NCBI GenBank assembly: GCA_039922635.1
Contig: JBDTEH010000241.1
Location: forward strand, 7,672-71,671
DNA from: Kofleriaceae bacterium
Lineage (GTDB): Bacteria; Myxococcota_A; Polyangia; Haliangiales; Haliangiaceae
Reading direction: 5' to 3'
Length of the DNA stretch: 64,000 bases
Positions 10,536 through 63,996 of the stretch are shown here, piece by piece; position 1 is the stretch's first letter, and each line of letters starts with the position of its first letter. Both the position numbers and the translations under genes were made by a program. The notes below the pieces were generated by a model. It was not told where the DNA came from. It did no database searches and was given only the letters and a program-made list of their open reading frames with translations.

Positions 10536-10719
10536 GGGTACGGCAGTCTAGTCCAGGTCGGGCACGGCGGCGGCGCGCCACGCGAGCGCAAACGTCGACG
10601 GGAGCGCGCGCTGGCGCGCGGTTAGCCGATCGCTCGTTTGTTGGCGGCGTGACGCCGGCGCGTCCCCCACACCCCTCGACTTTATGGGGTACAACCGCCG
10701 CACACAAAGGAGTCTCCAC

Positions 10720-11313
10720 ATGGCTTTCACGCTCCCCGAACTGCCCTATGCGAAGGATGCGCTCGCGCCGACGATCTCGGTCGAGACCATCGACTACCAC
10801 TACGGCAAGCACCACCAGGCCTACGTCAACAACCTCAACAACCTCGTACCCGGCACCAAGTACGAGAAGATGTCGCTCGACGAGATCGTGAAGGCCACGA
10901 ACGGCCAGGCCTCCGAGAAGAAGGTGTTCAACAACGCGGCGCAGGTGTGGAACCACACGTTCTACTGGCACTGCCTCGCGCCGAAGGCCGGCGGCGAGCC
11001 GACCGGCACCATCAAGAGCGCGATCGACAAGTCGTTCGGCTCGTTCGCCGACTTCAAGAAGAAGTTCGGCGACGCCGCGGCCGCGCAGTTCGGCTCCGGC
11101 TGGGCGTGGCTCGTCAAGGGTGCGGACGGCGCGCTCGCGATCGAGACCACCGCGAACGCTGAAACGCCGTTCGCGGCCGGCAAGACCTGCGTACTCACGC
11201 TCGACGTCTGGGAGCACGCCTACTACATCGACTATCGCAACGCTCGGCCCAAGTACATCGAGGAGTTCTGGAAGCTCGCGAACTGGGACTTCGCGGCCAA
11301 GAACTTCGGCTGA
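10720..11313 (+). CDS. sodB: Fe-type superoxide dismutase
   Basis: MAFTLPELPYAKDALAPTISVETIDYHYGKHHQAYV, AQVWNHTFYW and DVWEHAYYIDYRN are Fe/Mn-SOD signatures. AAGGAG lies 8 nt upstream of ATG 10720. The listed ORF start at 10684 is less likely. Confidence 0.95.
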   Translation: MAFTLPELPYAKDALAPTISVETIDYHYGKHHQAYVNNLNNLVPGTKYEKMSLDEIVKATNGQASEKKVFNNAAQVWNHTFYWHCLAPKAGGEPTGTIKSAIDKSFGSFADFKKKFGDAAAAQFGSGWAWLVKGADGALAIETTANAETPFAAGKTCVLTLDVWEHAYYIDYRNARPKYIEEFWKLANWDFAAKNFG

Positions 11314-11320
11314 GCCGAGA

Positions 11321-11749
11321 TCAAGCCGCGAGCCGTCGCAGCAGCGAGCTCGCGCGGCGCGGCAACCATGCGACGACGCGCGGCGCGGCCTCGCGGGCGC
11401 GATCGCGGAGCATGTCGCGCGCGGCGCCGGCGAACAACTCGAGGCGCTCGGCGCGCTCGACGAGTTGCTCGGCGAGTCGCGTGAGCAGGCGCGGCGAGGG
11501 CGGGGCCTTGGCGACCACGCTCACCGCCCGCACCGCCGGGACGATGGGGGCGAGATGCTGGGTCCGGATCGCCGCGGCGGTCCGTTCGGCAGGAGTCGCG
11601 CGTGCCATGGCCCGGGCCAGCGCATCGGCGGCCGCGACGATGTCCTCTTCGGGGTCGACCAGGGTGGCCGGGACCGGGCAGCAGGGGCACTGCGGGGTCA
11701 CCGCGAGGTTATAGGCGTGGCTGCACTGTGGGCAGTGGAGATAGCTCAC
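11321..11749 (-). CDS. Hypothetical protein with N-terminal CxxC...CxCC zinc-ribbon-like motif
   Basis: VSYLHCPQCSHAYNLAVTPQCPCCPV opens the protein at GTG 11749. The ORF is open up to TTG 11878. My manual third-position GC count is about 72% for 11750-11878 against about 81% just downstream, so I prefer the shorter form. The start is uncertain. Confidence 0.5.
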   Translation of the reverse strand: MSYLHCPQCSHAYNLAVTPQCPCCPVPATLVDPEEDIVAAADALARAMARATPAERTAAAIRTQHLAPIVPAVRAVSVVAKAPPSPRLLTRLAEQLVERAERLELFAGAARDMLRDRAREAAPRVVAWLPRRASSLLRRLAA

Positions 11750-11874
11750 CGAGTGAGCGTGTAGACCAACGCCTACCGGAGGCAACTTTTCGGTCGAGAT
11801 CGGCCACGCGACCTCGCGGGCTTGCGGCTGGCGCCCGCCTTGCACAAACCGTGTGCTCGAGCCGGGTGCGCCGT

Positions 11875-12333
11875 TCAAGCGTACGGACCGCTAGGCGCGC
11901 GGGGAAACACGACGCGATGGATCTCGTCGCGCTCCGGGCACACCAGCAGCACGCCATCGGCCGCGAACGCGATGCAGTACTCGAGCAGCTGCCGGCGCGT
12001 CGCGGCCGTGGTGATCGAGGGAGCGACGGCGCCGGTCTTGACCTCGGCGACCAGCAGCTGGCCGTCGAGCTCGACAAGATAGTCAGCGCGCAGCGGGGTC
12101 AGGCACGGTTCACCGTCGACCAGCGGCGCCCAGTCGACGCACGCCTGGCGTTCGACGATCGTGAAGCCGGCGGCGACGAGCAACTCGGCGGCGCGATCTT
12201 CGCCTGCACCGGCGCGCGCGGCGCGGCGGCGGGCGCGGCGCGAGCCTCGCCACGCGCGTAACGTCGCCGCGAGCCACAGCGCGGCGACGGCGGCGGCGAC
12301 CGCGGCGGTGATCGCGATCGCGAGGTAGGTCAC
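11875..12333 (-). CDS. Membrane-anchored PD-(D/E)XK-like (YraN/endonuclease-like) protein
   Basis: GTG at 12333. TM helix YLAIAITAAVAAAVAALWLAATL, then an Arg-rich stretch, then ADYLVELDGQLLVAEVKTG (a D...E-x-K nuclease-like motif). The listed 392-aa ORF upstream of this point overlaps the PHP gene out of frame and is rejected. Confidence 0.5.
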   Translation of the reverse strand: MTYLAIAITAAVAAAVAALWLAATLRAWRGSRRARRRAARAGAGEDRAAELLVAAGFTIVERQACVDWAPLVDGEPCLTPLRADYLVELDGQLLVAEVKTGAVAPSITTAATRRQLLEYCIAFAADGVLLVCPERDEIHRVVFPRAPSGPYA

Positions 12334-50039: not shown

Positions 50040-51211
50040 GGCCCATGAAGACGCTGACGCTCCTGTTCGCGATCGCGCTGGTGGGCGCCTGCACCGATGT
50101 GCAGCCCCCGATCACCGGTACGACCTCGCTCGCGATCACGCTGGTGTCGCCGGATCCGGGCGATGTCGACCACCGGATCGCGGCGACCGAGAACACGGTC
50201 GTCGTCAACCTCCAGGCCAAGGACGCGAACGGCAACGACGATGCGACCTACACCAAGCAGGTCTCGGTCTACGCGCACTACCTCGGCACGTTGACCCCAT
50301 ACCTCGATGGCGTGCCGCTCGCGACGGTCAACGTCCAGAACGGCGTCGCGATGAACGTCAGCGTCAAGTTGCCGCCGGTGTTCGGCCCGACCACGGTGTG
50401 GTTCGACGACGATCCGGCCGCGGGCGCGACCTACGCGGTCGGCGTGTCGCCGACGCTGTGGTACCGCGATCCGTTCATCGCCGACATCCAGACGCCGGCC
50501 AACGAGATGTCGGTCGATGCGTTCTCGAACTCGCCGCTCAACGGCAAGAACATCGCGGTCGATGCCTCGAAGCACGGTGCGGACGGCCTGATGGTCGTGA
50601 CCTCGGTGTTCGCCCAGGGCTACACGGTCGCCGATGTCCAGTGTGCGGCGATCGCGACGCCGCCGTGCGTGGCCGATAGCTACGACTATGTCGAGGTGTT
50701 CTCGTTCAGCGCGCCGACCGACCAGCGCGCGCGGTTCATCTTCGAAGGCCAGGTCATCGCCGGCTTCGCGGGCGGGATCAGCGAGTTCGATGGCCTGACC
50801 GAGATCGGCTTCCCGCAGACGTTCGTCGCCGGCGATCCCGTCGTCAACAAGGCGCTCGAGCCGCCCACCGTGAAGATCGATCAGACCTGGTTCAGCACCA
50901 ACAAGATCAACTTCGAGCGCAACGAGGCCGGCGCGATCGAGGTCGACAACGGCGTGGTGTGCCCGCTCGACGCCGACTACACGACCTACAAGCAGTGGAA
51001 GGTCGATCCGTCGGGCGTCGGTGATGCGGCCGCCTGTGGCGGCAAGAACGTGATCAACGTCATCACCACAGGCGTGACCACCGTGGACCCCGGAACCCTC
51101 GTCGGCAAGACGGTGCCTCGCATCGTCGGTATCTTGCGCCCCGTCAACATCGGCTCGTTCAACGTCTGGATCATCTATCCGCGCTCGGATGCGGATCTCA
51201 CCGTCAACTAG
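50036..51211 (+). CDS. Hypothetical lipoprotein (beta-rich, possible OB/Ig-like domains)
   Basis: ATG 50036 overlaps the upstream stop (ATGA). Signal and lipobox [20 protein letters not shown] recognise no catalytic motif. The segment FEGQVIAGFAGGISEFDGLTEIGFP is reminiscent of OB-fold modules of extracellular nucleases, but the resemblance is weak. Confidence 0.65.
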   Translation: MRPMKTLTLLFAIALVGACTDVQPPITGTTSLAITLVSPDPGDVDHRIAATENTVVVNLQAKDANGNDDATYTKQVSVYAHYLGTLTPYLDGVPLATVNVQNGVAMNVSVKLPPVFGPTTVWFDDDPAAGATYAVGVSPTLWYRDPFIADIQTPANEMSVDAFSNSPLNGKNIAVDASKHGADGLMVVTSVFAQGYTVADVQCAAIATPPCVADSYDYVEVFSFSAPTDQRARFIFEGQVIAGFAGGISEFDGLTEIGFPQTFVAGDPVVNKALEPPTVKIDQTWFSTNKINFERNEAGAIEVDNGVVCPLDADYTTYKQWKVDPSGVGDAAACGGKNVINVITTGVTTVDPGTLVGKTVPRIVGILRPVNIGSFNVWIIYPRSDADLTVN

Positions 51212-51218
51212 GACACTC

Positions 51219-52994
51219 ATGCGTACTCTTGTTACGGTCGTCGCTCTCGCGCTCGTCCCCGCCATCGCGCTGGCGCAGCCGTCCGATCCCGCGGGTTCGA
51301 CGGAAACCCCGGGCTCCGGGTCCAACGCTGCAACCGGCTCCAACGCCGGAGCGGCCACTACTACCACCACCGCCGGCGACGATGCTCGCATCAAGGAGCT
51401 CGTCGATCGCGAGCTCGCGAAGGTGCTGAACGACCGCGCCGCGAAGGACGCCGCGGACCACGCCGCGCAGGACAACGCGGCGAAGGATGCGCCGTTGACC
51501 GCGCCGAGCGACATCACGGGCGGCAGTGGGTTCATGGATACCCGCCTCGCGTTCACGGTGACGAACGAGAACCTCCTGGTCAAGCCGGGCGAGACCATCC
51601 CGAGCGTCCCGGGCTGGCGGTTCGGCGTGCCGAACTCGTTGGGCGTGCTGTTCTTCGATAACTACGACACCCGGTACTCGGGCTTCGAGACCCTGTCGCA
51701 CGCGGTCATGTACCGCGACTTCCACAAGGGCCACTTCGACGCCGAGGCCGGGTTCGTGATCCGGATCAACGAGCTGTCCGGAACCAACCTCAGCCTCTCG
51801 GACGATGGCTCGTACATCGTGCTGTCGAACTGGAAGGACCCCGAGCACAAGGATCCGACCCGGCTCAGCCTCACCGTATTCCCGGTGTCGGCAGATCGGT
51901 TCCGCCTCGGCTACAGCTACCGGCTGTCGTGGGGCGGAGATCCCGAGTACGGCCGCGCGAACTCGGCGACCCCGGGCATGAAGCTCCAGTACGACTCCCC
52001 GATGGGCTACGCGTTCGCCGGTGCCAAGAGCGCCGTCGTGCTCGACCGTCGAACGGCCGAGCAACGGTCGGCGCTCGCCGGCCTGTTCGGTGCCGGCATC
52101 GATCCGACCGACATGGTCCGGTTGGAGATCAACGGTGGCGTGTTCGACCGCGGCTACAACGAGCTGGTCGACGTCAACGATCAGAAGGTGATCCTGTACG
52201 GTGCATCCGCGCAGGTCGCCGTCCACCACGGCATGCCGGTGCAGTCGTCGATCGACTACAAGCTCTACAAGTACAATAACGAGCGCGTCAGCGGCCTGTT
52301 CGACCCGGTCAAGTACCCCGGCGGCCTGGCCTGGCTCGGCATGGCGGAGCTCACGGTCCTCAACCAGACCCTGAAGGACCCCGACAAGACCGGCACGACC
52401 AAGGTCCAGATGGGCGTGGCCGGAGATGCCAACGTTCGCATCATGCTCGACCGCACCCGGTTGCGGTTCGACGCCAGCTACCGCGATCTGGCGTTCATCC
52501 TCCACTCGGTCCCCAGCTTGCCGACCTACGAGGACTTTCCGAAGGTGTTCACCACGACCCCGGACTTCTTCGCGGCCGTGGGCGTCGATCAGAACTGGAA
52601 CGACTTCTTGACGCTCGGCGTCGTGGCCGGCGTGGAGAAGCCCGCGACCCTGACCTCGCCGACCGGCACCATCCCGGGCGGCATGACCGGCGTGACCGGC
52701 ACGGGCAGCTCGACCGCGGTCATCCGCAACAACAACATCGACACGATCATCACCATCCTGCCGCAGGGCAAATCGGCGGCTCCGCAGGTCGCCCTCAAGG
52801 GCAGTGCGAAGCTGACGTTCGGCCGGATGTACAGCGCGCTGCTCGAGGTGTTCTACAGCTACGATCCAAACGTGACCCGCTACCAGCGGGTCGGTTGCAC
52901 CAGCGACCAGGCGTGTCCGGACCAACCATTCCAGTACGTATTCGGCAACTTCAACCAGCTCGGCGTCAACGCCACGCTCCAGGCCAAGTTCTGA
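51219..52994 (+). CDS. Predicted outer-membrane beta-barrel protein
   Basis: ATG 51219 gives the signal MRTLVTVVALALVPAIALA; the ORF is open from 51189, which would overlap the upstream gene by 23 nt. A low-complexity and coiled N-region is followed by alternating-hydrophobicity strands. The C-terminus is LGVNATLQAKF (terminal Phe beta-signal). Confidence 0.7.
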   Translation: MRTLVTVVALALVPAIALAQPSDPAGSTETPGSGSNAATGSNAGAATTTTTAGDDARIKELVDRELAKVLNDRAAKDAADHAAQDNAAKDAPLTAPSDITGGSGFMDTRLAFTVTNENLLVKPGETIPSVPGWRFGVPNSLGVLFFDNYDTRYSGFETLSHAVMYRDFHKGHFDAEAGFVIRINELSGTNLSLSDDGSYIVLSNWKDPEHKDPTRLSLTVFPVSADRFRLGYSYRLSWGGDPEYGRANSATPGMKLQYDSPMGYAFAGAKSAVVLDRRTAEQRSALAGLFGAGIDPTDMVRLEINGGVFDRGYNELVDVNDQKVILYGASAQVAVHHGMPVQSSIDYKLYKYNNERVSGLFDPVKYPGGLAWLGMAELTVLNQTLKDPDKTGTTKVQMGVAGDANVRIMLDRTRLRFDASYRDLAFILHSVPSLPTYEDFPKVFTTTPDFFAAVGVDQNWNDFLTLGVVAGVEKPATLTSPTGTIPGGMTGVTGTGSSTAVIRNNNIDTIITILPQGKSAAPQVALKGSAKLTFGRMYSALLEVFYSYDPNVTRYQRVGCTSDQACPDQPFQYVFGNFNQLGVNATLQAKF

Positions 52995-53074: not shown

Positions 53075-53941
53075 GTGATCGAAGAGCTTGGAGAAATCGT
53101 ACGAGCCGCCGGCGGCTTCCTCGCCGAGGTGGTCGCTCGAATCCTCCGTGGGTTCATGCCCCTCGCCCCGGCCTTCGCGCTTGGCTGCCAGGGGCCGACC
53201 GTCACGCCGATCAAGGTCGAGCAGAAGCCCGGCGCGATCGCCCAGCCGGAGCGACAGGCTCTCGAGCCGAAGGCGCTGGGCGACTTCACGATCACGTTCT
53301 ATTACGTGATCGGCGAGGACGAGATCGCCGCGAAGCAGGCCGCGAACGACAACCGCGACAACCACCTCGATGGCACCGAGCTCGCTGCCATGACCTCAGA
53401 TCCGGACGAGGTCAGCTTGTACGACGCGGGGAGCTGTTCGCCGATCGCCAAGGTATCCCACGAGTTTGCGAACCAACTCGCGATCCAGGGCACCGGCAAG
53501 CTGCACGACGGCCGCGTGCTCAACATCTGGGGCCGCTGCAAGTGTGGCGACAGCCGCAGCGCCTGCTTCAAGGTCACCGCGAACCGGTGGGGCACGTCGG
53601 GCTCGAACCATCCGCTCCAGCCGTTCCGTACGGTCGCCGTCGATCCCAACGTCGTGAAGCTGGGCACGCTTTTGTACGTTCCGTTACTCGAAGGCCGCAC
53701 GATGCCGGGGCGCGCACCCTGGGGTGGCTACGTTCACGATGGTTGTGTCGTCGCGGACGACACCGGCGGCCATATCGATGGCCACCGGCTCGACCTGTTC
53801 GTCGGTCGCAAGGCGTACTTCCTGGGGCTCTCCGGCTCGGGCTCGAGCCACGCATGGGCCAAGCACGTCCCCATCTATGACGGCAGCCAGATCTGCGAGC
53901 GCAAGGGCCGCAAGGTCAGCCGCAAGTCCGGCTCGATCTAG
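53075..53941 (+). CDS. 3D-domain (MltA/RlpA-like double-psi beta-barrel) protein, probable lipoprotein
   Basis: FTITFYYV, IQGTGKLHDGRVLN, VAVDPNVVKLGTLLYVP and ADDTGGHIDGHRLDLFVG are 3D-domain signatures. Lipobox PAFALGC. The start is uncertain (53075 or ATG 53156). Confidence 0.8.
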   Translation: MIEELGEIVRAAGGFLAEVVARILRGFMPLAPAFALGCQGPTVTPIKVEQKPGAIAQPERQALEPKALGDFTITFYYVIGEDEIAAKQAANDNRDNHLDGTELAAMTSDPDEVSLYDAGSCSPIAKVSHEFANQLAIQGTGKLHDGRVLNIWGRCKCGDSRSACFKVTANRWGTSGSNHPLQPFRTVAVDPNVVKLGTLLYVPLLEGRTMPGRAPWGGYVHDGCVVADDTGGHIDGHRLDLFVGRKAYFLGLSGSGSSHAWAKHVPIYDGSQICERKGRKVSRKSGSI

Positions 53942-54371: not shown

Positions 54372-54510
54372 GGCCGGCGACCCTATCAAAAGGCCGTTCA
54401 GGGTGTGAGGCCGACCGCCGACCATCGCTGACGAGGCGCGGTGTCAACGTGGCAGGACGCGCGCGCCGATGATTCGCCGGCGGAGTCTACGACCTCGGCC
54501 GGGAGATCAC

Positions 54511-55359
54511 CTACCGGCCGGTCCGGAGCGCGCGCACGATCTCCTCGCGCACGACCTCGGCCAGCGTGGCGCCGCCGGGTGGGATCGTCGTGACGTTCGC
54601 GTGCGGCGCGGGGGCGCAGGCAACGACGGGCTTGGCGTTGCCGAGGCTGGCCGCGTGGGCACCGCCGAGCAGCTGCGCCGCGGTCTGGACGGCGCGGTCG
54701 GCGGCCCGCCCGATGCCGGCCTTCGCACGGGCGGCGAGCAACGGCTGGATCGCGGACTCTGGAAGCGGCTCGACCCCGCCGACCGCCGCTGCATAGATCG
54801 CGATCTTCGCGAGGTGCTCGACGAGCTCCATGCGCAACAGGGCGGTCTCGCAGTCCTTGCCCCACGTGATCACGCCGTGATTCGCGAGCAGCACCGCGTC
54901 GACCAGCTCGCACCACGGCGCGAGCGCCTCCTTGGCCGCGGTGCCGGGCTGCGCAAATGGCAGCTTGGGGAGCTTCGGACCGAGCGAGACCACGGCCTCG
55001 GCGATGAACGGCAGCTCGATCGGGTTGCCGCGCGAGCTCGCGATCGCGGTCGCGAACGGCGGGTGCGCATGGACGACCGCGCCGATGTCGGGGCGGCGCT
55101 CGTAGACGACCAGGTGGAGGCCGATCTCCCCGAAAACCTTCGCCCCGGCTCGGGCGCCGATCACGACCCCCCTGGCGTCGACCTCGATCAGGTCCTTGTC
55201 GTGGATCAGCCGCTTCGAGGTCGCGGTCGGGGTCGCGATCAGGCGCCCCCCCGATCCGGCGAGGTCGCGCGCGCTGACGTTGCCGTCGTGGTTCGCGGTC
55301 CAGCCGGCGGCGTGGAGATGCCGCGCGGTCTCGGCGACCGCCGTGCGCAGCAGCTTCAT
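54511..55359 (-). CDS. Class II aldolase/adducin-family protein with about 68-aa C-terminal extension ending in an encapsulation-peptide-like amphipathic helix
   Basis: ATG 55359 overlaps the upstream BMC-P stop (ATGA). Motifs: [36 protein letters not shown] (H-x-H metal site), [11 protein letters not shown]. After residue 215 or so comes an Ala/Pro-rich linker, then [19 protein letters not shown] at the extreme C-terminus. Confidence 0.88.
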
Positions 55360-55639
55360 CCTAGATCCCCAGGAGCTACGTCCACGGCGTCGACGATGCC
55401 GACGATCGCGGACCGGATCGGCACGACGTCGCCCTGCTGCAGCAACTGGCGTACCCCGGTACCCTCGGTCAACACGAGGACGCGGTCGCCTGCACCAGCC
55501 TGCGCGCGGTCGATCGCGACGAAGCTCGCGCCGACGTCCTTGCCCTCGGCATCGAGGGGTTGGACGACGAGCAGCGTCTTGCCGGCGTACGCGGGGTGTT
55601 TCACCGCGGCCCACACAGGCCCCACGACCCGGCAGTGCC

Positions 55640-55643
<4 letters not shown>
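55356..55643 (-). CDS. BMC-P (EutN/CcmL-family) microcompartment vertex protein, copy 2
   Basis: GTG 55643 overlaps the stop of copy 1 (GTGA). [66 protein letters not shown]...[14 protein letters not shown] is collinear with EutN/CcmL proteins. Length 95 aa. Confidence 0.9.
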
Positions 55644-55903
<260 letters not shown>

Positions 55904-55942
55904 CGGGGGCAATATACATGGCAGCCGCAGTACGATGGAGCC

Positions 55943-57777
<1,835 letters not shown>

Positions 57778-57781
<4 letters not shown>

Positions 57782-60700
57782 CGAATCCCGACGCCGAGCT
57801 TCGCGCGGGTCGCGAGCCAGCCGGGTTGCGCGACGGCGCGGATCAGGTGCTCCATCGATTCACCCCGCGCGCGCGCGTTCGCGGCGATCACGTTCGGATC
57901 GCCGCCGGCGAGCAGCGCCGCGCGGTCGGCGTCGCGATGGCACGCGGCGAGGTAGCGTGCGTTGTCGAGCGCGGCGGCGGGCAGGCTCGCGAGCAGCTGC
58001 TCGAGGCGCGTGCGCAGCTTGACCGGGAGCGCGCCCTTGACCATCTCGTCGTGGGCATGCTGGACGTCCTGTTCGGCGATCAATGCCGACACCGCATCGC
58101 GCAGCGCGGGCGGGCCGAACAGCCGGACGACCGAGGTGAGCAGGCGCGTGGCATCGCGGGCGGGGAGGCCGGCGAACGCGAGGTGCTCGGGGCGGGTCAG
58201 CTCGACGGCACGTGCGAGCAGCGCCCGCAGCTCGGTGCGCGGCACGGCGTCGCCCTCGACGGCGAGCCGCTGCCCGAGCACGATCACGGGCGTACCGGCC
58301 GCGACGACGGTGATGTCGGGGGCGGACTCGGCCTGGTAGAGCATGATCGCACCGGCGCCGAGCATGGTCGTGAGCCGCGGGAACATCGAGACCGCGGCCG
58401 CGTGCGACGACGACGGGATGCGCTGCGCGCCGATCACGCCGAAGCGTGCGAACGCCTCGTCCAGATCGGGCCACATCAACTGTGCGGCCTCGGCGAGCGT
58501 CGCGGCGATCGCGGCGAGCGGCGAGCGCTCGTGGCCGGTGATCAACGGCTGGGTGTCCGGATCGATCGCGGCCTTGTAGGGCTCGTCGTCGCGCATCGCG
58601 TAGGGCTTGTTGACCTGCAGGAACGCGGATTGATGGACGTCTGCGGTGTGGCCGGCGGCGACCGCGATCTCGAGCGTCGCACGCGCGGCATCGAGCTTGG
58701 TCTGGCGGCGCAGCTCGTCGGCCCACGCGACGAGGTCGGCGAGCGCGCCGGTCTGCGCGGTGATCGCGCAGAGGTGCGCGGCGACCGCGTCCTTGCGTGC
58801 CGGATCATCTCCCGCCTTGACGATCTCGACGAGCTCGCGGCGCGCGAGCGTCGCCGCTTCACTCTGCGGTGCGAGCTGGATCGCGCGCTCGAGCGCCGGC
58901 ACGGCCTGGCGGGTATCGCCGCGCGTCGCGCGGGCGTGGCCGAGGCGATACGACATCAGCGCGCGGTGCGGCGCGTCGGTGGCGGTGAAGCGATCGTCCT
59001 TCGCGGTGAGCAGGCGGGTCAACATCGCGGCGGCGGCCTCGACGTCGCTGTGCTCGATCGCGATCTGCGACGCGAGATCGACCGCGCCGACATCGTACGG
59101 ATCGTTGTCGACGGCGCGCTCGGCGGCGGCCCGCGCGCGGATCCGATCACCGGCGGCGACGTAGTCGTACGCCGCGCGCAGGTGGAGCGCGGCGCGTTCC
59201 GCCGGCGTCGCGCCGAACGCGGCCATCAGCTCGGCGGTGCGCGCGGCGCCCGCTAGATCGCCGGCGAGGTTCTGGCGCTCGAGCAGCTTCTCGAGCAGCG
59301 CGAGGTGCTTGGCCTCGAGTGGCTGCGCGGCGGCCACCGCGGCGGCGAAGCAGGTTCGCGCGCGCTCCTCGTCGTGGAGCATCATCAGCGCCATGTCGCC
59401 AAGGGCCTCGAACAGGCGCATGCGCTCGACCGGCTCCTCGGTCGCCGTCGCCTGCCGGGTCAAGAGATCCGCAGCGCGCCGGTGATCGCCTTGTTCCATC
59501 GCGATCTCGGCGAGCGCCTGCAGCGCCGGCGCGAAGCTCGGCCTGAGCTCGAGCGCGCGCGTGTACAGGGGTGGCGCCTTCTCGGGGCGCAGCGAGCGGA
59601 TCTCGGCGAGCGCGGCGTGATAGAGCCCCTGCGCCACCTCGCTCGGATAGCGCTCGCCGTCCTCGTGGGCCGCGAGTGGCGACAGGTGCAACGCGGCTTC
59701 GCGCCAGCGCCGTGCCTTGTAGCGGTTCTCGCCGATCGCGAGCTTGATCAAGAGGTGGCCGCGATGCAAGCGGTCCGCGGCGACCAGCGTCTGATACGCC
59801 TCCTCGTCGCGGCCGAGCTTCTCGTGTGCGGTGGCGAGCCGGCGATGCAGATCGGCGACCAGCGCCCCGGGCGCGGACGCGAGCGTCGTGCCGTCGAGGA
59901 TCTCGCGCATGAACGCCTCGAGGTCGGTCCAGCGCTCGGCCTCCGCGTAGAAGTCGGCGAGCGCGACGATCGCGGGGATATGATCGGGCACCGTGCCGAG
60001 GGCCTCGAGCAGGCGCCGCTCCGACGCGGGCGTCACGCCCGCCGCGCGCGACAGCGCGGCGAGTTGCGTGAGGATGCGCGCCTTCTCCGGCGGTGTCAGC
60101 GACTCGTCCTCGAGCTTGTGCTCGAGCACGAGCGTGGCGGCCTGCGGATCTCCACCCTGCTCGTGGATCCCGGCGCGGGCCCAGGTCGCGTCGGCGTGAT
60201 AGGGCCGCAGCGCGAGCACGCGATCGTACGCGGCCTGCGCTGCGTCGAGGTCGCCGACGCGCTGCTGCAGCACATCACCCGCGGCCATCAACGCCGCGAT
60301 CTTGGAGTCGTCGTCGTTCGCGCTCTCGGCCTCGCGCAGCTTCGCGTCGGCGAAGGCCCGTGGATCCTCGTCGGGAGATTGCAGCTGGCCGAGTAGCCCG
60401 AGCGCGGTCGGGTGCTCGGGCACGAGCACGAGCGCGGCTTCGATCGCGGCCCGCGCGCCTTCGCGGTCCTGGGTGTCGAGCCGCAGCTGCGCGAGCTTGA
60501 TGTGGAGCGCGGCGAGGTCGCCCTTGCTGCGCCCCGCGGTCTCGGTCTTCTTGGCCGGCGGGCCCTTCGCGGCGGGCTCGGCGGCGCCCTCGACGGCGAC
60601 GACATGCGGCGACGATGCGGAGTCGACAAACGCCGAGATCCGGCCCTCGAGGATCGCCGCGGCTTCGCGCTCGCGGCCGGCCTTGCCGAGTGCGATCACG

Positions 60701-63700
60701 AGTGCATCCGCGATCTGCGGATCGTCCGGGAGGATCGTGCGCGCGTGGCGCAGCGTGGCGGCTGCTTCCTCGGGCGAGGCGAGCCAATCGAGCAGCACGC
60801 CGGCGCGGCGCGCGAGCAGCTGCGCGCGTTCGGCGGCGTCGCGGGCGAGGCCGGCGCGGCGGCGCAGCACGTCGCCGAGCTCGGTCCAGCGTGCGTGCGC
60901 CTGGTACAGCCGATCGAGCGCGGCCCACGCGTCTTCGTCGTCGGGCCAGATCGCGACCAGCTGCTGATACGAATCGATCGCGCGGTCCGGCAGCTCGAGC
61001 TCTTGCTCGTAGATCTTCGCGATCTGGCGCAGCGCCACCCGCGCCTCGTCGCTGCCTTCGGCGATCTCCGACACCTTGACGAGCGTCTCGATCACCTTGC
61101 TCCACCGACCCACCGTGCCGTAGAGCTCGGCGAGCTTCATGCACACGGCGGTATCCGCGGGCGCGAGCACGCGCAGGCGCTCGAACGCATCGATCGCGTC
61201 GTGCGGCCGGTTGATCCGATCGGTGTAGATCGCCGTGAGGTCGCGCAACAACTGCGGGCGTTCGGCCTCGGGAGCGGCGGTGCCGAGCCGCGGATCGGTG
61301 CGCTCCTCGAGCGAGGCGGCGAGCTCGACCCAGCGGCCCTCGGTGCGATACAGCTCCTCGATGCGCGCGCGCGCGGTGGTCTCGTTCGGTAGCATGCCGA
61401 GGATACGGCGCAGTTGCGCCTCGGTCTCGCGCGGGCGCTTCTGCTCGAACCGGATGGTCGCGACCTCCATCAGGAGGTCCGCGGCGGTGTGCGCGGTCTC
61501 GGCTTGTTCGGCGAGCCCCTCGTAGAGATCCGCGAGCCGGTCCCACGCCTTGTGCTCGCTCGCGATCCGGTGCAGCCGCGCACGTACCTCGGCATCACCT
61601 TCAGGCGCGCGCTTGGCGGTGGCGAACGCGCGCGCGAGCGCATCGAAGGCGCGCGCGATGTCCTTGCCACCGGTCTCCCACACCTCGCTGGCGCGGAACA
61701 GCCAGCGCAGCCGCGCGCTCGGATCCGGCGCGGGCAGCGATTCGTACGCGACCGCGAGCTCTTCCCACGGCGTCTCGAACATGCGGTTCGGCAGCGTCGG
61801 CAGCGGCGGGCGGCGCACCGGGGCCTGCGCCTTGCGCGGCATCGGCGGCGGTGCCGAGACCCGCCGCGCGCGCGGCGAACCGGCCGTGATCTGCGGCGGG
61901 CGTGGCGGCGGGGGCGGCAGCTTCGAGCCGCTGGGCGTCACCCCGGGCAGGTGCGGTGCGCTGCGGACCGGCGGCCCGGGTGGAACGACCATCTTCGCGA
62001 TGTCGTTCATCGACAGCGTCATCGTCGAGTTCTCGGGCGTGACGAACGGGTTCTCGCCCGTGACCTGCTGCTTGCGCGCCTCCGCCATCTCGATCTCGGT
62101 AAGATCGAGCGGCTGCGTCGAATCGCCGATGTTGAGGCTCGCACTGGACAGATCGTCGTCGCTCAGCGGATCGGTCTGCGCCCGGTTCGGGATCCGCGGC
62201 CGCAGCGGCGCGGCGCGCGTCGCGGAGGCGACGGCCTCTGCGACGGCGGTCTCCACCTGGATCGTCGCGGCCGGCGGCTCCGCGCGCGGCGCCTTGTCGG
62301 CGTCGCGATACTTGCCGATCACGCGCGCGAGCCGCCACAGGTGCGAGGCGGTCTCGGCCTCCTCGGGCGCGAGCAGCAACGCGACGAGATGCGTGCGGAA
62401 CGCGCGGGGGGCGTCCTTCAGTTGGTCTTCGATCGTCGCGGCCTTGCGGCGCAGCAACTCGACGCGCTTCGCGGTCGTCGCCGCGCGATCGATCAACGCG
62501 GAGTCGACGGCGACGAGGTCGTTCCACGCCCGCGCCTTCGGCGCCAGGGCCTCGAGCGCGAGCCGGACGTCTTCGCGATCCGGCGACCACGAGAACGCGG
62601 CGAGCACGTCGGCGACGGCGCCCTTCGGATCGCCGGTGCGCTCGTCGAGGATGCGCGCGCGGCGCAGGTAGAGCTCGACGCGCTCGCTCGGGGTCGCCGC
62701 GGTGAGCACGAGCTCGAACGCATCGAGCAGGTGCTTCCAGATCGGCCGCTGATCGAGCTCGGCGGCGAGGCGCTCGAGCTCCGAGAGCAGCTCGGCGTCG
62801 CGTGGCGACGCGGCGAGGGCCTCGGCAAAGATCGCGATCCCACGGGGCTTGTCGCCGAGCCGGCGCTCGCACAGCTGCGCGAGCTCGCGCGACAGCGCGA
62901 CGAACCGCTCGGGCTCGGCAGGCACGCCTCCGCCCGCGGCGATCAGGCGCTTGCGCTCGTCGGTGATCACCTCCGCGAGCTCGCGCCAGAGCCCGTATGC
63001 CTCGCCGGCGCGGCGGACATCCGCGAGCGTCTGCTCGTCGGGAGCTTCGTCGTGCGCGCGCCGCCACCAGCGGAACGCGCCGCGTGGGTCGCCGAGCTTG
63101 TCCGCGGTCGCGGCGGCGATCCGCTGGACCAGCGAGCGGCGCTCGTCGGCGAACGTCATCGAGGCTTCGGGATCGGCCGCCGATGCGGCGACCACGTGCT
63201 GGAGCATGCGCTCCAGCATCGCGACGTGCTCCTTCCAGCGCCCGAGCTTCGCGAGCAAGTCGGCCGCGGCCGCCATCGCTTCTTCTTGCTCGGGGTCGAG
63301 CTCGAGCACGCGCTTGAACGCCTGCAGGGCACGCGTCGGGTTGGCGAGCCGGTCGCGGCAGATGAAGCCGATCTCGAGGCCGCGCGAGATCTTGCGGATC
63401 GGCTCGGGCGACAGGTACATCTCGCGCTCCGCGATCCGCACGGCCGCGTCGAAGTCGCCGCGCGCCTCGTGCAGCCGGCGCAGCGCGGTGTGGGCCTCGA
63501 GGTGATTCGGGTTGATGTCGCGGAGCAGCGCATCGAGCGCCTTGATCGCGTCGGCGGGCGCGCCGAGCCGCTCCTCGAAGATCGTCGCGCGCTCCATCGC
63601 GACCTGGCTGGCCGCGTCGAGATCGTCGCCGAAGTTCGAGCCGATCATCATCGCGACCTGGCGACCGAGGATCTCGGCGAGCTCGCGCCACTTGCCGGCA

Positions 63701-63996
63701 TCGCGATACAGCCGCGTGAGGGCGGCGAGCGCGGCGCGGCTCTTGGGCGTCAGCTCGAGCACGCGCAGCCACGCCTTCACGGCGCGCGCCGGATCGTGCA
63801 AGTGCTGTTCGAGCACGACCGCGTAGACCTCGAGGTCGTACACGCGCACCGCCGCGTCGGGCGTGCCGGGCGCCGGTAGCGGGCGACCGCCATCGAGGCG
63901 CTCGAGGATCTGGGCGAGCTCCGGCCAGCGCTCGGCGCGCTCGTACAAGGCGCGCAACGCGGCGAGTGCGTCGGGATCCGAGGGTGACGCGTGCAC
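57778..63996 (-). CDS. Giant TPR-repeat protein (at least 2,072 aa), probably 5'-truncated by the window edge
   Basis: TPR-like 34-aa helical hairpins run throughout (e.g. AIDAFERLRVLAPADTAVCMKLAELYGTVGRWSKVIE). There is a central Pro-rich segment (PPGPPVRSAPHLPGVTPSGSKLPPPPPRPPQI...). The frame stays open past 63996 to the end of the window, so the true start may lie beyond 64000. Confidence 0.85.

Follow-up and report, generated by a model that had tools for sequence, protein, structure and literature searches.

The stretch analysed here (the window) is a 64-kb piece of a contig from a Kofleriaceae bacterium (JBDTEH010000241.1), with a G+C content of 70%. On its minus strand it carries a compact operon encoding two shell pentamer proteins of bacterial microcompartments (BMCs) and a class II, FucA-like aldolase (window 55359..54511, −). 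The aldolase comprises 282 amino acids (MKLLRT…RTGR*), starting at the ATG at 55359 and ending at the stop codon 54513..54511 (−); its nearest named homologs come from Kofleriaceae metagenome-assembled genomes. We find that the catalytic fold is followed by a tail of 65 amino acids in which conserved and variable segments alternate, and that the helix closing this tail is, judging from comparative evidence, probably an encapsulation peptide (EP) carried on a tether. The region at issue, window 54514..54717 (−), corresponds to aldolase residues 215–282 and had been read in a first-pass annotation of the DNA as a linker plus an EP that targets the aldolase to a shell lumen.

Upstream of the aldolase lie two genes for BMC-P proteins, the pentamers of the EutN/CcmL family. 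The first (55640..55903, −) encodes 87 amino acids and matches Pfam PF03319 (E = 1.9e-23), and the pentamer of the Haliangium ochraceum HO shell structure 5V74 is among its relatives in the PDB. The second (55356..55643, −) begins with GTG, encodes about 95 amino acids, matches the same family (E = 3e-21) and likewise has EutN, CcmL and 5V74 as PDB relatives. Four nucleotides are shared between the stop of the first gene and the start of the second (GTGA, 55640..55643, −), and four more between the stop of the second and the ATG of the aldolase (ATGA, 55356..55359, −). These overlaps chain the three genes together, suggesting that the two pentamer proteins and the aldolase are translationally coupled. 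A 389-aa open reading frame (ORF) in a program-made list extends the aldolase frame upstream into the neighbouring genes; we placed the start at 55359 because homologs begin at the methionine of MKLLR or MKQLR. A search around the operon for promoter-like and terminator-like sites gave none.

Two BMC-P genes together with an aldolase constitute the type I satellite locus described for HO, or Haliangium-type, BMCs (Sutter et al. 2021, PMC8217296). The window holds just this combination, with a PF00596 aldolase, and by its gene content the locus is a type I HO satellite operon of the order BMC-P, BMC-P, aldolase. The same set occurs in 12 of 12 close loci (L001–L012, Kofleriaceae/Myxococcales) and in all 14 non-redundant complete orthologs at ≥60% identity, each of which has a tail of 63–64 amino acids. 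In four assemblies that bear the satellite (JASGLC01, JBDTJY01, DATJXL01 and JAFAOG01), a different contig has an HO-type BMC-H gene; three of these four contigs also encode an aldehyde dehydrogenase (AldDh) with an EP, its N-terminus being of the DERKIEEIVARVLERLGG type. In the type I organisation, a main locus placed elsewhere in the genome holds BMC-H, BMC-T, a third BMC-P and AldDh; representative HO main loci, such as L014, have BMC-T, BMC-H, BMC-P and AldDh genes in a row.

Catalytic domain and modular tail

The catalytic domain (residues 1–217; 54709..55359, −) is that of a class II, FucA-like aldolase. Its match to PF00596 spans residues 8–188 (E = 2.3e-39), and FucA-type PDB chains of 203–222 amino acids align to residues ~4–210. 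We used an AlphaFold2 (AF2) model built from a 149-sequence alignment, with a predicted local distance difference test (pLDDT) score of 91 and a predicted template-modelling score of 0.82; a model based on only 54 sequences (≥75% identity) reached a pLDDT of 53.6 and was discarded. In the model used, the catalytic domain has a pLDDT above 90, and Foldseek superposes it on FucA-type structures over ~210 columns with a template-modelling score (TM) of 0.86–0.90 relative to the target and a root-mean-square deviation (rmsd) of ~2 Å. E78, H97 and H99 are invariant and H161 is at least 90% conserved, and these residues align with the Zn/catalytic positions in an alignment with 6BTD. Profile match, fold and the metal/catalytic glutamate with three histidines place the protein in the class II aldolase/adducin family. 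It reaches no NCBIfam equivalog cutoff, so no substrate is assigned. Because the Pfam match, the PDB alignments and the AF2 superposition all stop there or before, we set the end of the fold at about residue 217, in good agreement with the earlier estimate of about residue 210. Beyond residue ~207, the protein has no match in Pfam or NCBIfam, and the tail has no relative in the PDB.

To describe the tail, we used conservation among 120 homologs at ≥71% identity, synonymous versus nonsynonymous codon differences among 14 orthologous genes (23% versus 23% in the catalytic core) and a wider family set of 149 members at 43–86% identity. Directly after the fold, AF2 predicts helices at residues 218–221, 223–231 and 233–239, with a pLDDT of 90 over residues 211–230 and 73 over residues 231–240. 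The resulting extra helix (residues 218–232; 54664..54708, −) is conserved in the 120 homologs and is the most amphipathic stretch of the aldolase (hydrophobic moment 0.60, shuffle p = 0.004); codon differences over residues 207–232 amount to 34% synonymous versus 13% nonsynonymous. It is followed by a variable spacer (residues 233–243; 54631..54663, −) in which column entropy is high, the length varies by as many as about 12 extra columns of the alignment and codon differences are 9% versus 73%. An invariant, cysteine-containing block (the Cys block; residues 244–253; 54601..54630, −) comes next, in which V245, V246, A247, C248, A249, P250 and P252 are the same in all 120 homologs and codon differences are 47% versus 5%, a tighter constraint than on the catalytic core. 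Residues 254–265 (54565..54600, −) comprise a semi-conserved segment, SxVPTIPPGG, and a second, short spacer. V256, T258, P261 and G263 are conserved in at least 90% of homologs and codon differences over residues 254–263 are 22% versus 41%; residues 264–265 are variable, with indels of 0–5 amino acids before L266 and 31% versus 51% over residues 264–269. Two homologs (P0037 and P0086) have a tandem duplication of 10–20 amino acids (GPASLATIxx) after residue 257, between VPTI and PPGG, and the tail near this residue thus tolerates large insertions. In the AF2 model, residues 241–265 are extended, with a pLDDT of 61–67 and isolated bridges at 245 and 258. The tail closes with the terminal amphipathic helix, the putative EP (residues 266–279; 54523..54564, −), and a variable last triplet of residues (TGR) before the stop codon (54511..54522, −).

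With synonymous changes so abundant in the tail, it is the minus-strand protein that selection preserves, and neither the DNA itself nor a plus-strand ORF. An overlapping ORF on the plus strand (54469..56178) was rejected as non-coding, as synonymous-site variation tracks the minus-strand frame. The three tail segments quoted in the first-pass annotation occur verbatim in the 282-aa ORF, and its description of an Ala/Pro/Gly-rich linker agrees with a content of 53% of these residues over 30 positions. Low complexity and poor conservation, however, describe only part of it: residues 233–243 and 264–265 are hypervariable and carry indels, but a strongly conserved helix (218–232) and an invariant block (244–253) lie within the tether, and about a third of the 30-residue linker is free spacer. 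On the alignments, the tether is modular rather than a plain low-complexity spacer, and only residues 233–243 and 264–265 are truly variable.

This anatomy bears on an alternative in which the tail is an intrinsic part of the enzyme and, folded against the aldolase tetramer, serves as a lid or in oligomerisation or regulation, much as in E. coli FucA, whose C-terminal tail takes part in the neighbouring active site. In the window aldolase, the extra helix directly continues the fold at a pLDDT of ~90, constraint on the Cys block exceeds that on the catalytic core, and the high AF2 confidence for the terminal helix in a monomer could reflect docking on the core. Variable spacers and duplications of 10–20 amino acids between the domain and the terminal helix, by contrast, are not expected of a fixed structural element, and we regard an intrinsic role of the tail as unlikely.

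In the form [VI][VI]ACAP[AP]P, the Cys block is present in 106 of the 149 family members, always 29–54 amino acids from the C-terminus, and all 21 of its occurrences in 3.58 Mb of fetched loci fall within aldolase ORFs. The other 43 members, including H. ochraceum and its near relatives, lack it, so the block is not essential to HO-type organelles generally. Distant members have D, S or P in place of His253, at the end of the block, and a conserved Cys/His metal pair is therefore disfavoured. 'VVAC' formally fits a lipobox; this reading was rejected, the motif lying 247 residues into a cytoplasmic enzyme without a signal peptide. No published account of a tether Cys motif was found in the literature searched, although Table 2 of Aussignargues et al. 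lists 5.5% Cys in aldolase linkers that the text calls unconserved (PMC4594438). Cysteines early in the tail recur in other BMC aldolase lineages, as APAPxC…CQV in the ACI type, EPGCP in Bryobacterales and in many others. Several Bryobacterales aldolases that have no shell genes nearby carry Arg instead of the Cys (EPGRP). We tentatively propose, as a possibility that we rate below even odds, that the P-VVACAPAP(H) block is a second, previously undescribed functional module of the tail, roughly 15–40 residues before the terminal helix. It may form a small β-hairpin, and it could either touch a shell protein independently of the helix, the BMC-P pair of the same operon being one candidate, or cross-link the cargo core in a redox- or metal-dependent way. 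If so, targeting of the aldolase would be bipartite rather than a matter of linker and helix, and the cysteines early in the tails of other BMC aldolases, those of ACI and Bryobacterales included, would follow the same principle.

The terminal helix as a putative encapsulation peptide

Of all segments of the tail, the terminal helix is the best conserved. V270, R271, E273, V275 and L278 are invariant in the 120 homologs, and the 13-mer L-A-x-[IV]-[IV]-R-[EQ]-E-[IL]-[VA]-R-A-L ends 145 of the 149 family members; its counterpart in the H. ochraceum aldolase is DDLVRVIREELVRALAG. With codon differences of 39% synonymous versus 7% nonsynonymous in its core (residues 270–279), the helix is, at the codon level, under strong purifying selection. 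An EP-like pattern searched in the six-frame translation of the window matched at the terminal helix only. L266, V269, V270, I274, V275 and L278 occupy positions i, i+3, i+4, i+8, i+9 and i+12, in line with the hydrophobic periodicity first seen in the terminal 19-mer. Secondary-structure prediction, which the first-pass annotation had proposed as a check, yields a helix at residues 266–280 in the AF2 model, with a pLDDT of 89 over residues 271–280. The hydrophobic moment of the terminal 14-mer is 0.60, which is bracketed by the values of 0.46–0.71 that we obtain for validated EPs, the PduP, PduD, EutC and EutE peptides; the peptide of HO-type AldDh, with a moment of 0.80, lies above the aldolase helix.

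These features can be compared with the definition of an EP by Kinney 2012 and Aussignargues 2015. The helix is located at the extreme terminus (residues 266–279 of 282) of an enzyme encoded together with shell genes, the two PF03319 genes upstream, and it is a predicted amphipathic α-helix at about the defined length of 15–20 residues (AF2 266–280, moment 0.60). Where the definition has a poorly conserved linker, the tether here combines two hypervariable spacers with two strongly conserved segments (residues 218–232 and 244–253). Because indels flank the terminal helix, the tether is probably flexible.

Shortness, C-terminal position and amphipathicity are also what a generic amphipathic element would have, such as a membrane-targeting helix, a degron or the cargo-loading peptide of an encapsulin, and myxobacteria also encode encapsulins. 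The consensus of encapsulin loading peptides is rich in Gly and Ser, unlike the terminal helix. With four Arg and three Glu in 14 residues and a mean hydrophobicity of −0.13, the helix also differs from membrane-targeting helices, and 14 of 14 complete orthologous loci adjoin BMC-P genes. On composition and context, we rejected all three of these readings, which we judge highly improbable.

A further comparison comes from the AldDh of HO-type main loci. In 105 such loci (L014, gene 10618..12069, and 104 others among L015–L207), the enzyme begins with the N-terminal consensus DERKIEEIVARVLERLGG, followed by a Gly/Pro/Ala tether; three of the 105 belong to assemblies that also hold the satellite. 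This peptide and the aldolase terminal helix have an EEIV core in common, and helices with this core thus occur on two unrelated enzymes of one organelle type, at opposite termini. The EutC peptide has the same core. A resemblance to a peptide on an unrelated fold would not be expected if the tail were an intrinsic element of the aldolase.

The likeness of the two peptides is equally consistent with a cargo-core assembly module in place of a shell-binding tag, in which the aldolase and AldDh helices bundle with one another, the Cys cross-links or binds a metal or cluster, and the shell closes over the enzyme condensate nucleated in this way. An aggregation model for EPs has been published (PMC4594438), and the EP binding site on shells has been stated to be unknown (PMC6056538). 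The invariance of Cys248 in the 120 homologs and the early-tail cysteines of other BMC aldolase families would fit such a role. The Cys block is, however, missing from the 43 family members that include H. ochraceum, so that it is not essential to HO-type assembly, and the lack of conservation of His253 in distant members speaks against a fixed Cys/His metal site. We consider a cargo-core module a possible explanation, better placed than an intrinsic role of the tail and well short of the probability that we give to an EP.

Distribution of the tail and a proposed mechanism

A profile scan of reference genomes with a 15-sequence alignment yielded 80 loci. Combined with the loci retrieved before, these gave 84 non-redundant complete aldolase genes, with flanks of ≤10 kb on each side, in which we examined the association between tail and shell genes. 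Among aldolases with tails of at least 25 amino acids, 43 had shell genes nearby and 15 did not, versus 12 and 14 among those with shorter tails. Tail and shell genes are thus genuinely associated (odds ratio 3.3, p = 0.024), though with exceptions on both sides. Sorting by moment alone (≥0.55) was too crude: it put obvious members of the family in the wrong class and gave no association with shell genes, and a rule based on tail length and composition took its place.

Several observations weigh against reading the terminal helix as an EP of an HO organelle. No BMC-H or BMC-T gene (PF00936) is detectable in the 64-kb window, and the full shell gene set of the source genome is therefore an assumption drawn from relatives. 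Compared with shuffles of its own residues, the moment of the 14-mer reaches only p ~0.06–0.10, and V275 and E273 are misplaced on an ideal helical wheel, each facing the 'wrong' side; because the shuffle test is not significant, we do not rest the case on amphipathicity. The two conserved elements of the tether (residues 218–232 and 244–253) are unexplained by a simple model of linker plus EP. Experimental encapsulation of any HO-type aldolase was not found in the literature searched. Fifteen distant aldolases, mainly from Acidobacteriota, are those with tails of at least 25 amino acids and no shell gene within the flanks examined, and 10 of them end in a helix-like 13-mer. Finally, 12 loci of Myxococcaceae/Archangium (L222, L224, L225, L228, L229, L230, L233, L235, L237, L238, L240 and L242) have the BMC-P, BMC-P, aldolase arrangement with a tail-less aldolase that stops at ~214–223 amino acids and ends in …AGLGPKPKK; the single N-terminus read, that of L237, is not extended.

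The tail-less triads show that adjacency to BMC-P genes does not require the tail and that the tail is not universally needed; in Myxococcaceae/Archangium, the aldolase either has another route of entry or is not cargo. They also bear on an intrinsic role of the tail in both directions. Tail-less orthologs still adjoin BMC-P genes, as they might if the tail served the enzyme itself, but the fold is complete without a tail both in these aldolases and in FucA-type PDB homologs, which end at ~206–222 amino acids.

Weighing these points, we hold that the window aldolase is probably an enzyme of the HO organelle that is packaged through its terminal helix acting as an EP. The lumen-targeting role proposed in the first-pass annotation has thus gained support from comparative tests (synteny, conservation and likeness to AldDh). 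The EP reading is supported by the shell-gene context, synteny, the AldDh-like peptide, conservation, selection, the predicted helix and published precedent. In the mechanism that we propose, the aldolase would be a class II, metal-dependent, FucA-like enzyme of the HO BMC, and its C-terminal 65 residues would act as a modular tether consisting of the helix 218–232, the spacer 233–243, the block 244–253, a second spacer and the helix 266–279. During assembly, the terminal helix would bind the lumenal face of the shell, the similar AldDh helix or both. The aldolase tetramer would thereby be co-packaged, and the aldehyde that it releases would be consumed inside the shell. The mechanism goes beyond the observed anatomy, conservation, selection, predicted helix, synteny and AldDh likeness in what it assumes about contacts with shell or cargo, the tetramer, packaging itself, the substrate and a possible function of the Cys block, all of which we infer.

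Structural and engineering work on microcompartments has the HO shell of Haliangium as its main model, and the native function of the HO BMC was called 'enigmatic' in the 2021 catalog (PMC8217296). In the sampled Kofleriaceae, Haliangiales, Polyangia and other Myxococcota, a class II aldolase that we read as EP-tagged is conserved. This makes the aldolase an obvious candidate for the aldehyde-producing signature enzyme, whose substrate would define the function of the organelle. Native EPs load HO shells poorly (PMC6056538). For engineering, a near-invariant natural C-terminal tag and a conserved accessory block provide concrete sequences for trial.

The genes around the operon were also inspected. 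A divergent Ser/Thr protein kinase gene (55943..57781, +; 612 amino acids) has its predicted start ~39 bp from the first BMC-P gene, and the same neighbour is found in loci L001–L006 and L011 at 54–80% identity; the kinase may be a regulator or merely inherited synteny. Further out, the operon is flanked by genes for a 2072-aa TPR-repeat protein (57781..63996, −) and a 3D-domain protein (53075..53941, +), neither of which has an apparent link to the microcompartment. Related loci have both the 3D-domain gene and a 601-aa gene (51189..52994) in syntenic positions.

Comparison with known microcompartment aldolases

C-terminal EPs on class II aldolases of BMCs are already known from bioinformatic work, and the window represents an ortholog-level instance in a known locus type. 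They have been reported for 21 of 23 BMC-associated class II aldolases, with linkers of 23–81 amino acids, among them those of the PVM, PVM-like and GRM5 types, and the extension was reported to be absent from non-BMC homologs (Aussignargues et al. 2015, PMC4594438). C-terminal EPs were also reported for class II aldolases of the ACI type (PMC8217296) and of the SPU5 type. As read from the alignments, what goes beyond the first-pass annotation is the modular tether with its invariant Cys block and the sister lineage that keeps the operon without the tail.

The PVM, PVM-like and GRM5 aldolases share with the window aldolase the PF00596 family, the terminus that carries the EP and an amphipathic helix of ~12–17 amino acids. 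Their extensions of 23–81 amino acids compare with ~48 amino acids from the end of the fold to the helix in the window. In contrast to them, the window aldolase is of the HO type and from Myxococcota, and whereas the published extension was described as 'without sequence conservation', the tether here contains a conserved helix and an invariant block and leads to a near-fixed helix motif. The aldolase of H. ochraceum (P0313, 266 amino acids), which belongs to the same published locus type (PMC8217296), is closer, at ~54% identity over 98% of the query, and its terminal helix, LVRVIREELVRALAG, is near-identical to that of the window aldolase; unlike the latter, it lacks the Cys block and has a degenerate first helix.

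ACI-type aldolases resemble the window aldolase in their PF00596 family, in early-tail cysteines and in a long tail that ends in a helix (…EIRLTYRELTALIEDAVRNL), and their gene adjoins a BMC-H gene and a BMC-P triplet. They differ in having only ~35–39% identity, another helix sequence and another Cys motif (APAPxC…CQV). Tails of the ACI type (L075, L083–L086, L089–L093), together with those of L241, L245, L250, L270, L276 and L282, end in …T(R/Y)xEL(I/T)ALV/IxEA(L/V)+ helices and have cysteines shortly after the fold (APAPxC…CQV; EPGCP).

Outside the class II aldolases, the N-terminal EP of HO-type AldDh resembles the putative aldolase EP: both are short amphipathic helices that are charged, have a core of the EEIV type and adjoin a Gly/Pro/Ala-rich tether. 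It differs in its position at the opposite terminus, in the unrelated enzyme that bears it and in a slightly longer helix (…ARVLERLGG). The classic N-terminal EPs of EutC, PduP and PduD belong with it in this comparison, and the hydrophobic moments are comparable. E. coli FucA (PDB 1FUA), finally, shares with the window aldolase the fold (TM 0.88, rmsd ~2 Å) and the Zn/catalytic-site residues; in contrast to the window aldolase, however, it ends after 215 amino acids, with no extension and no accompanying shell genes.

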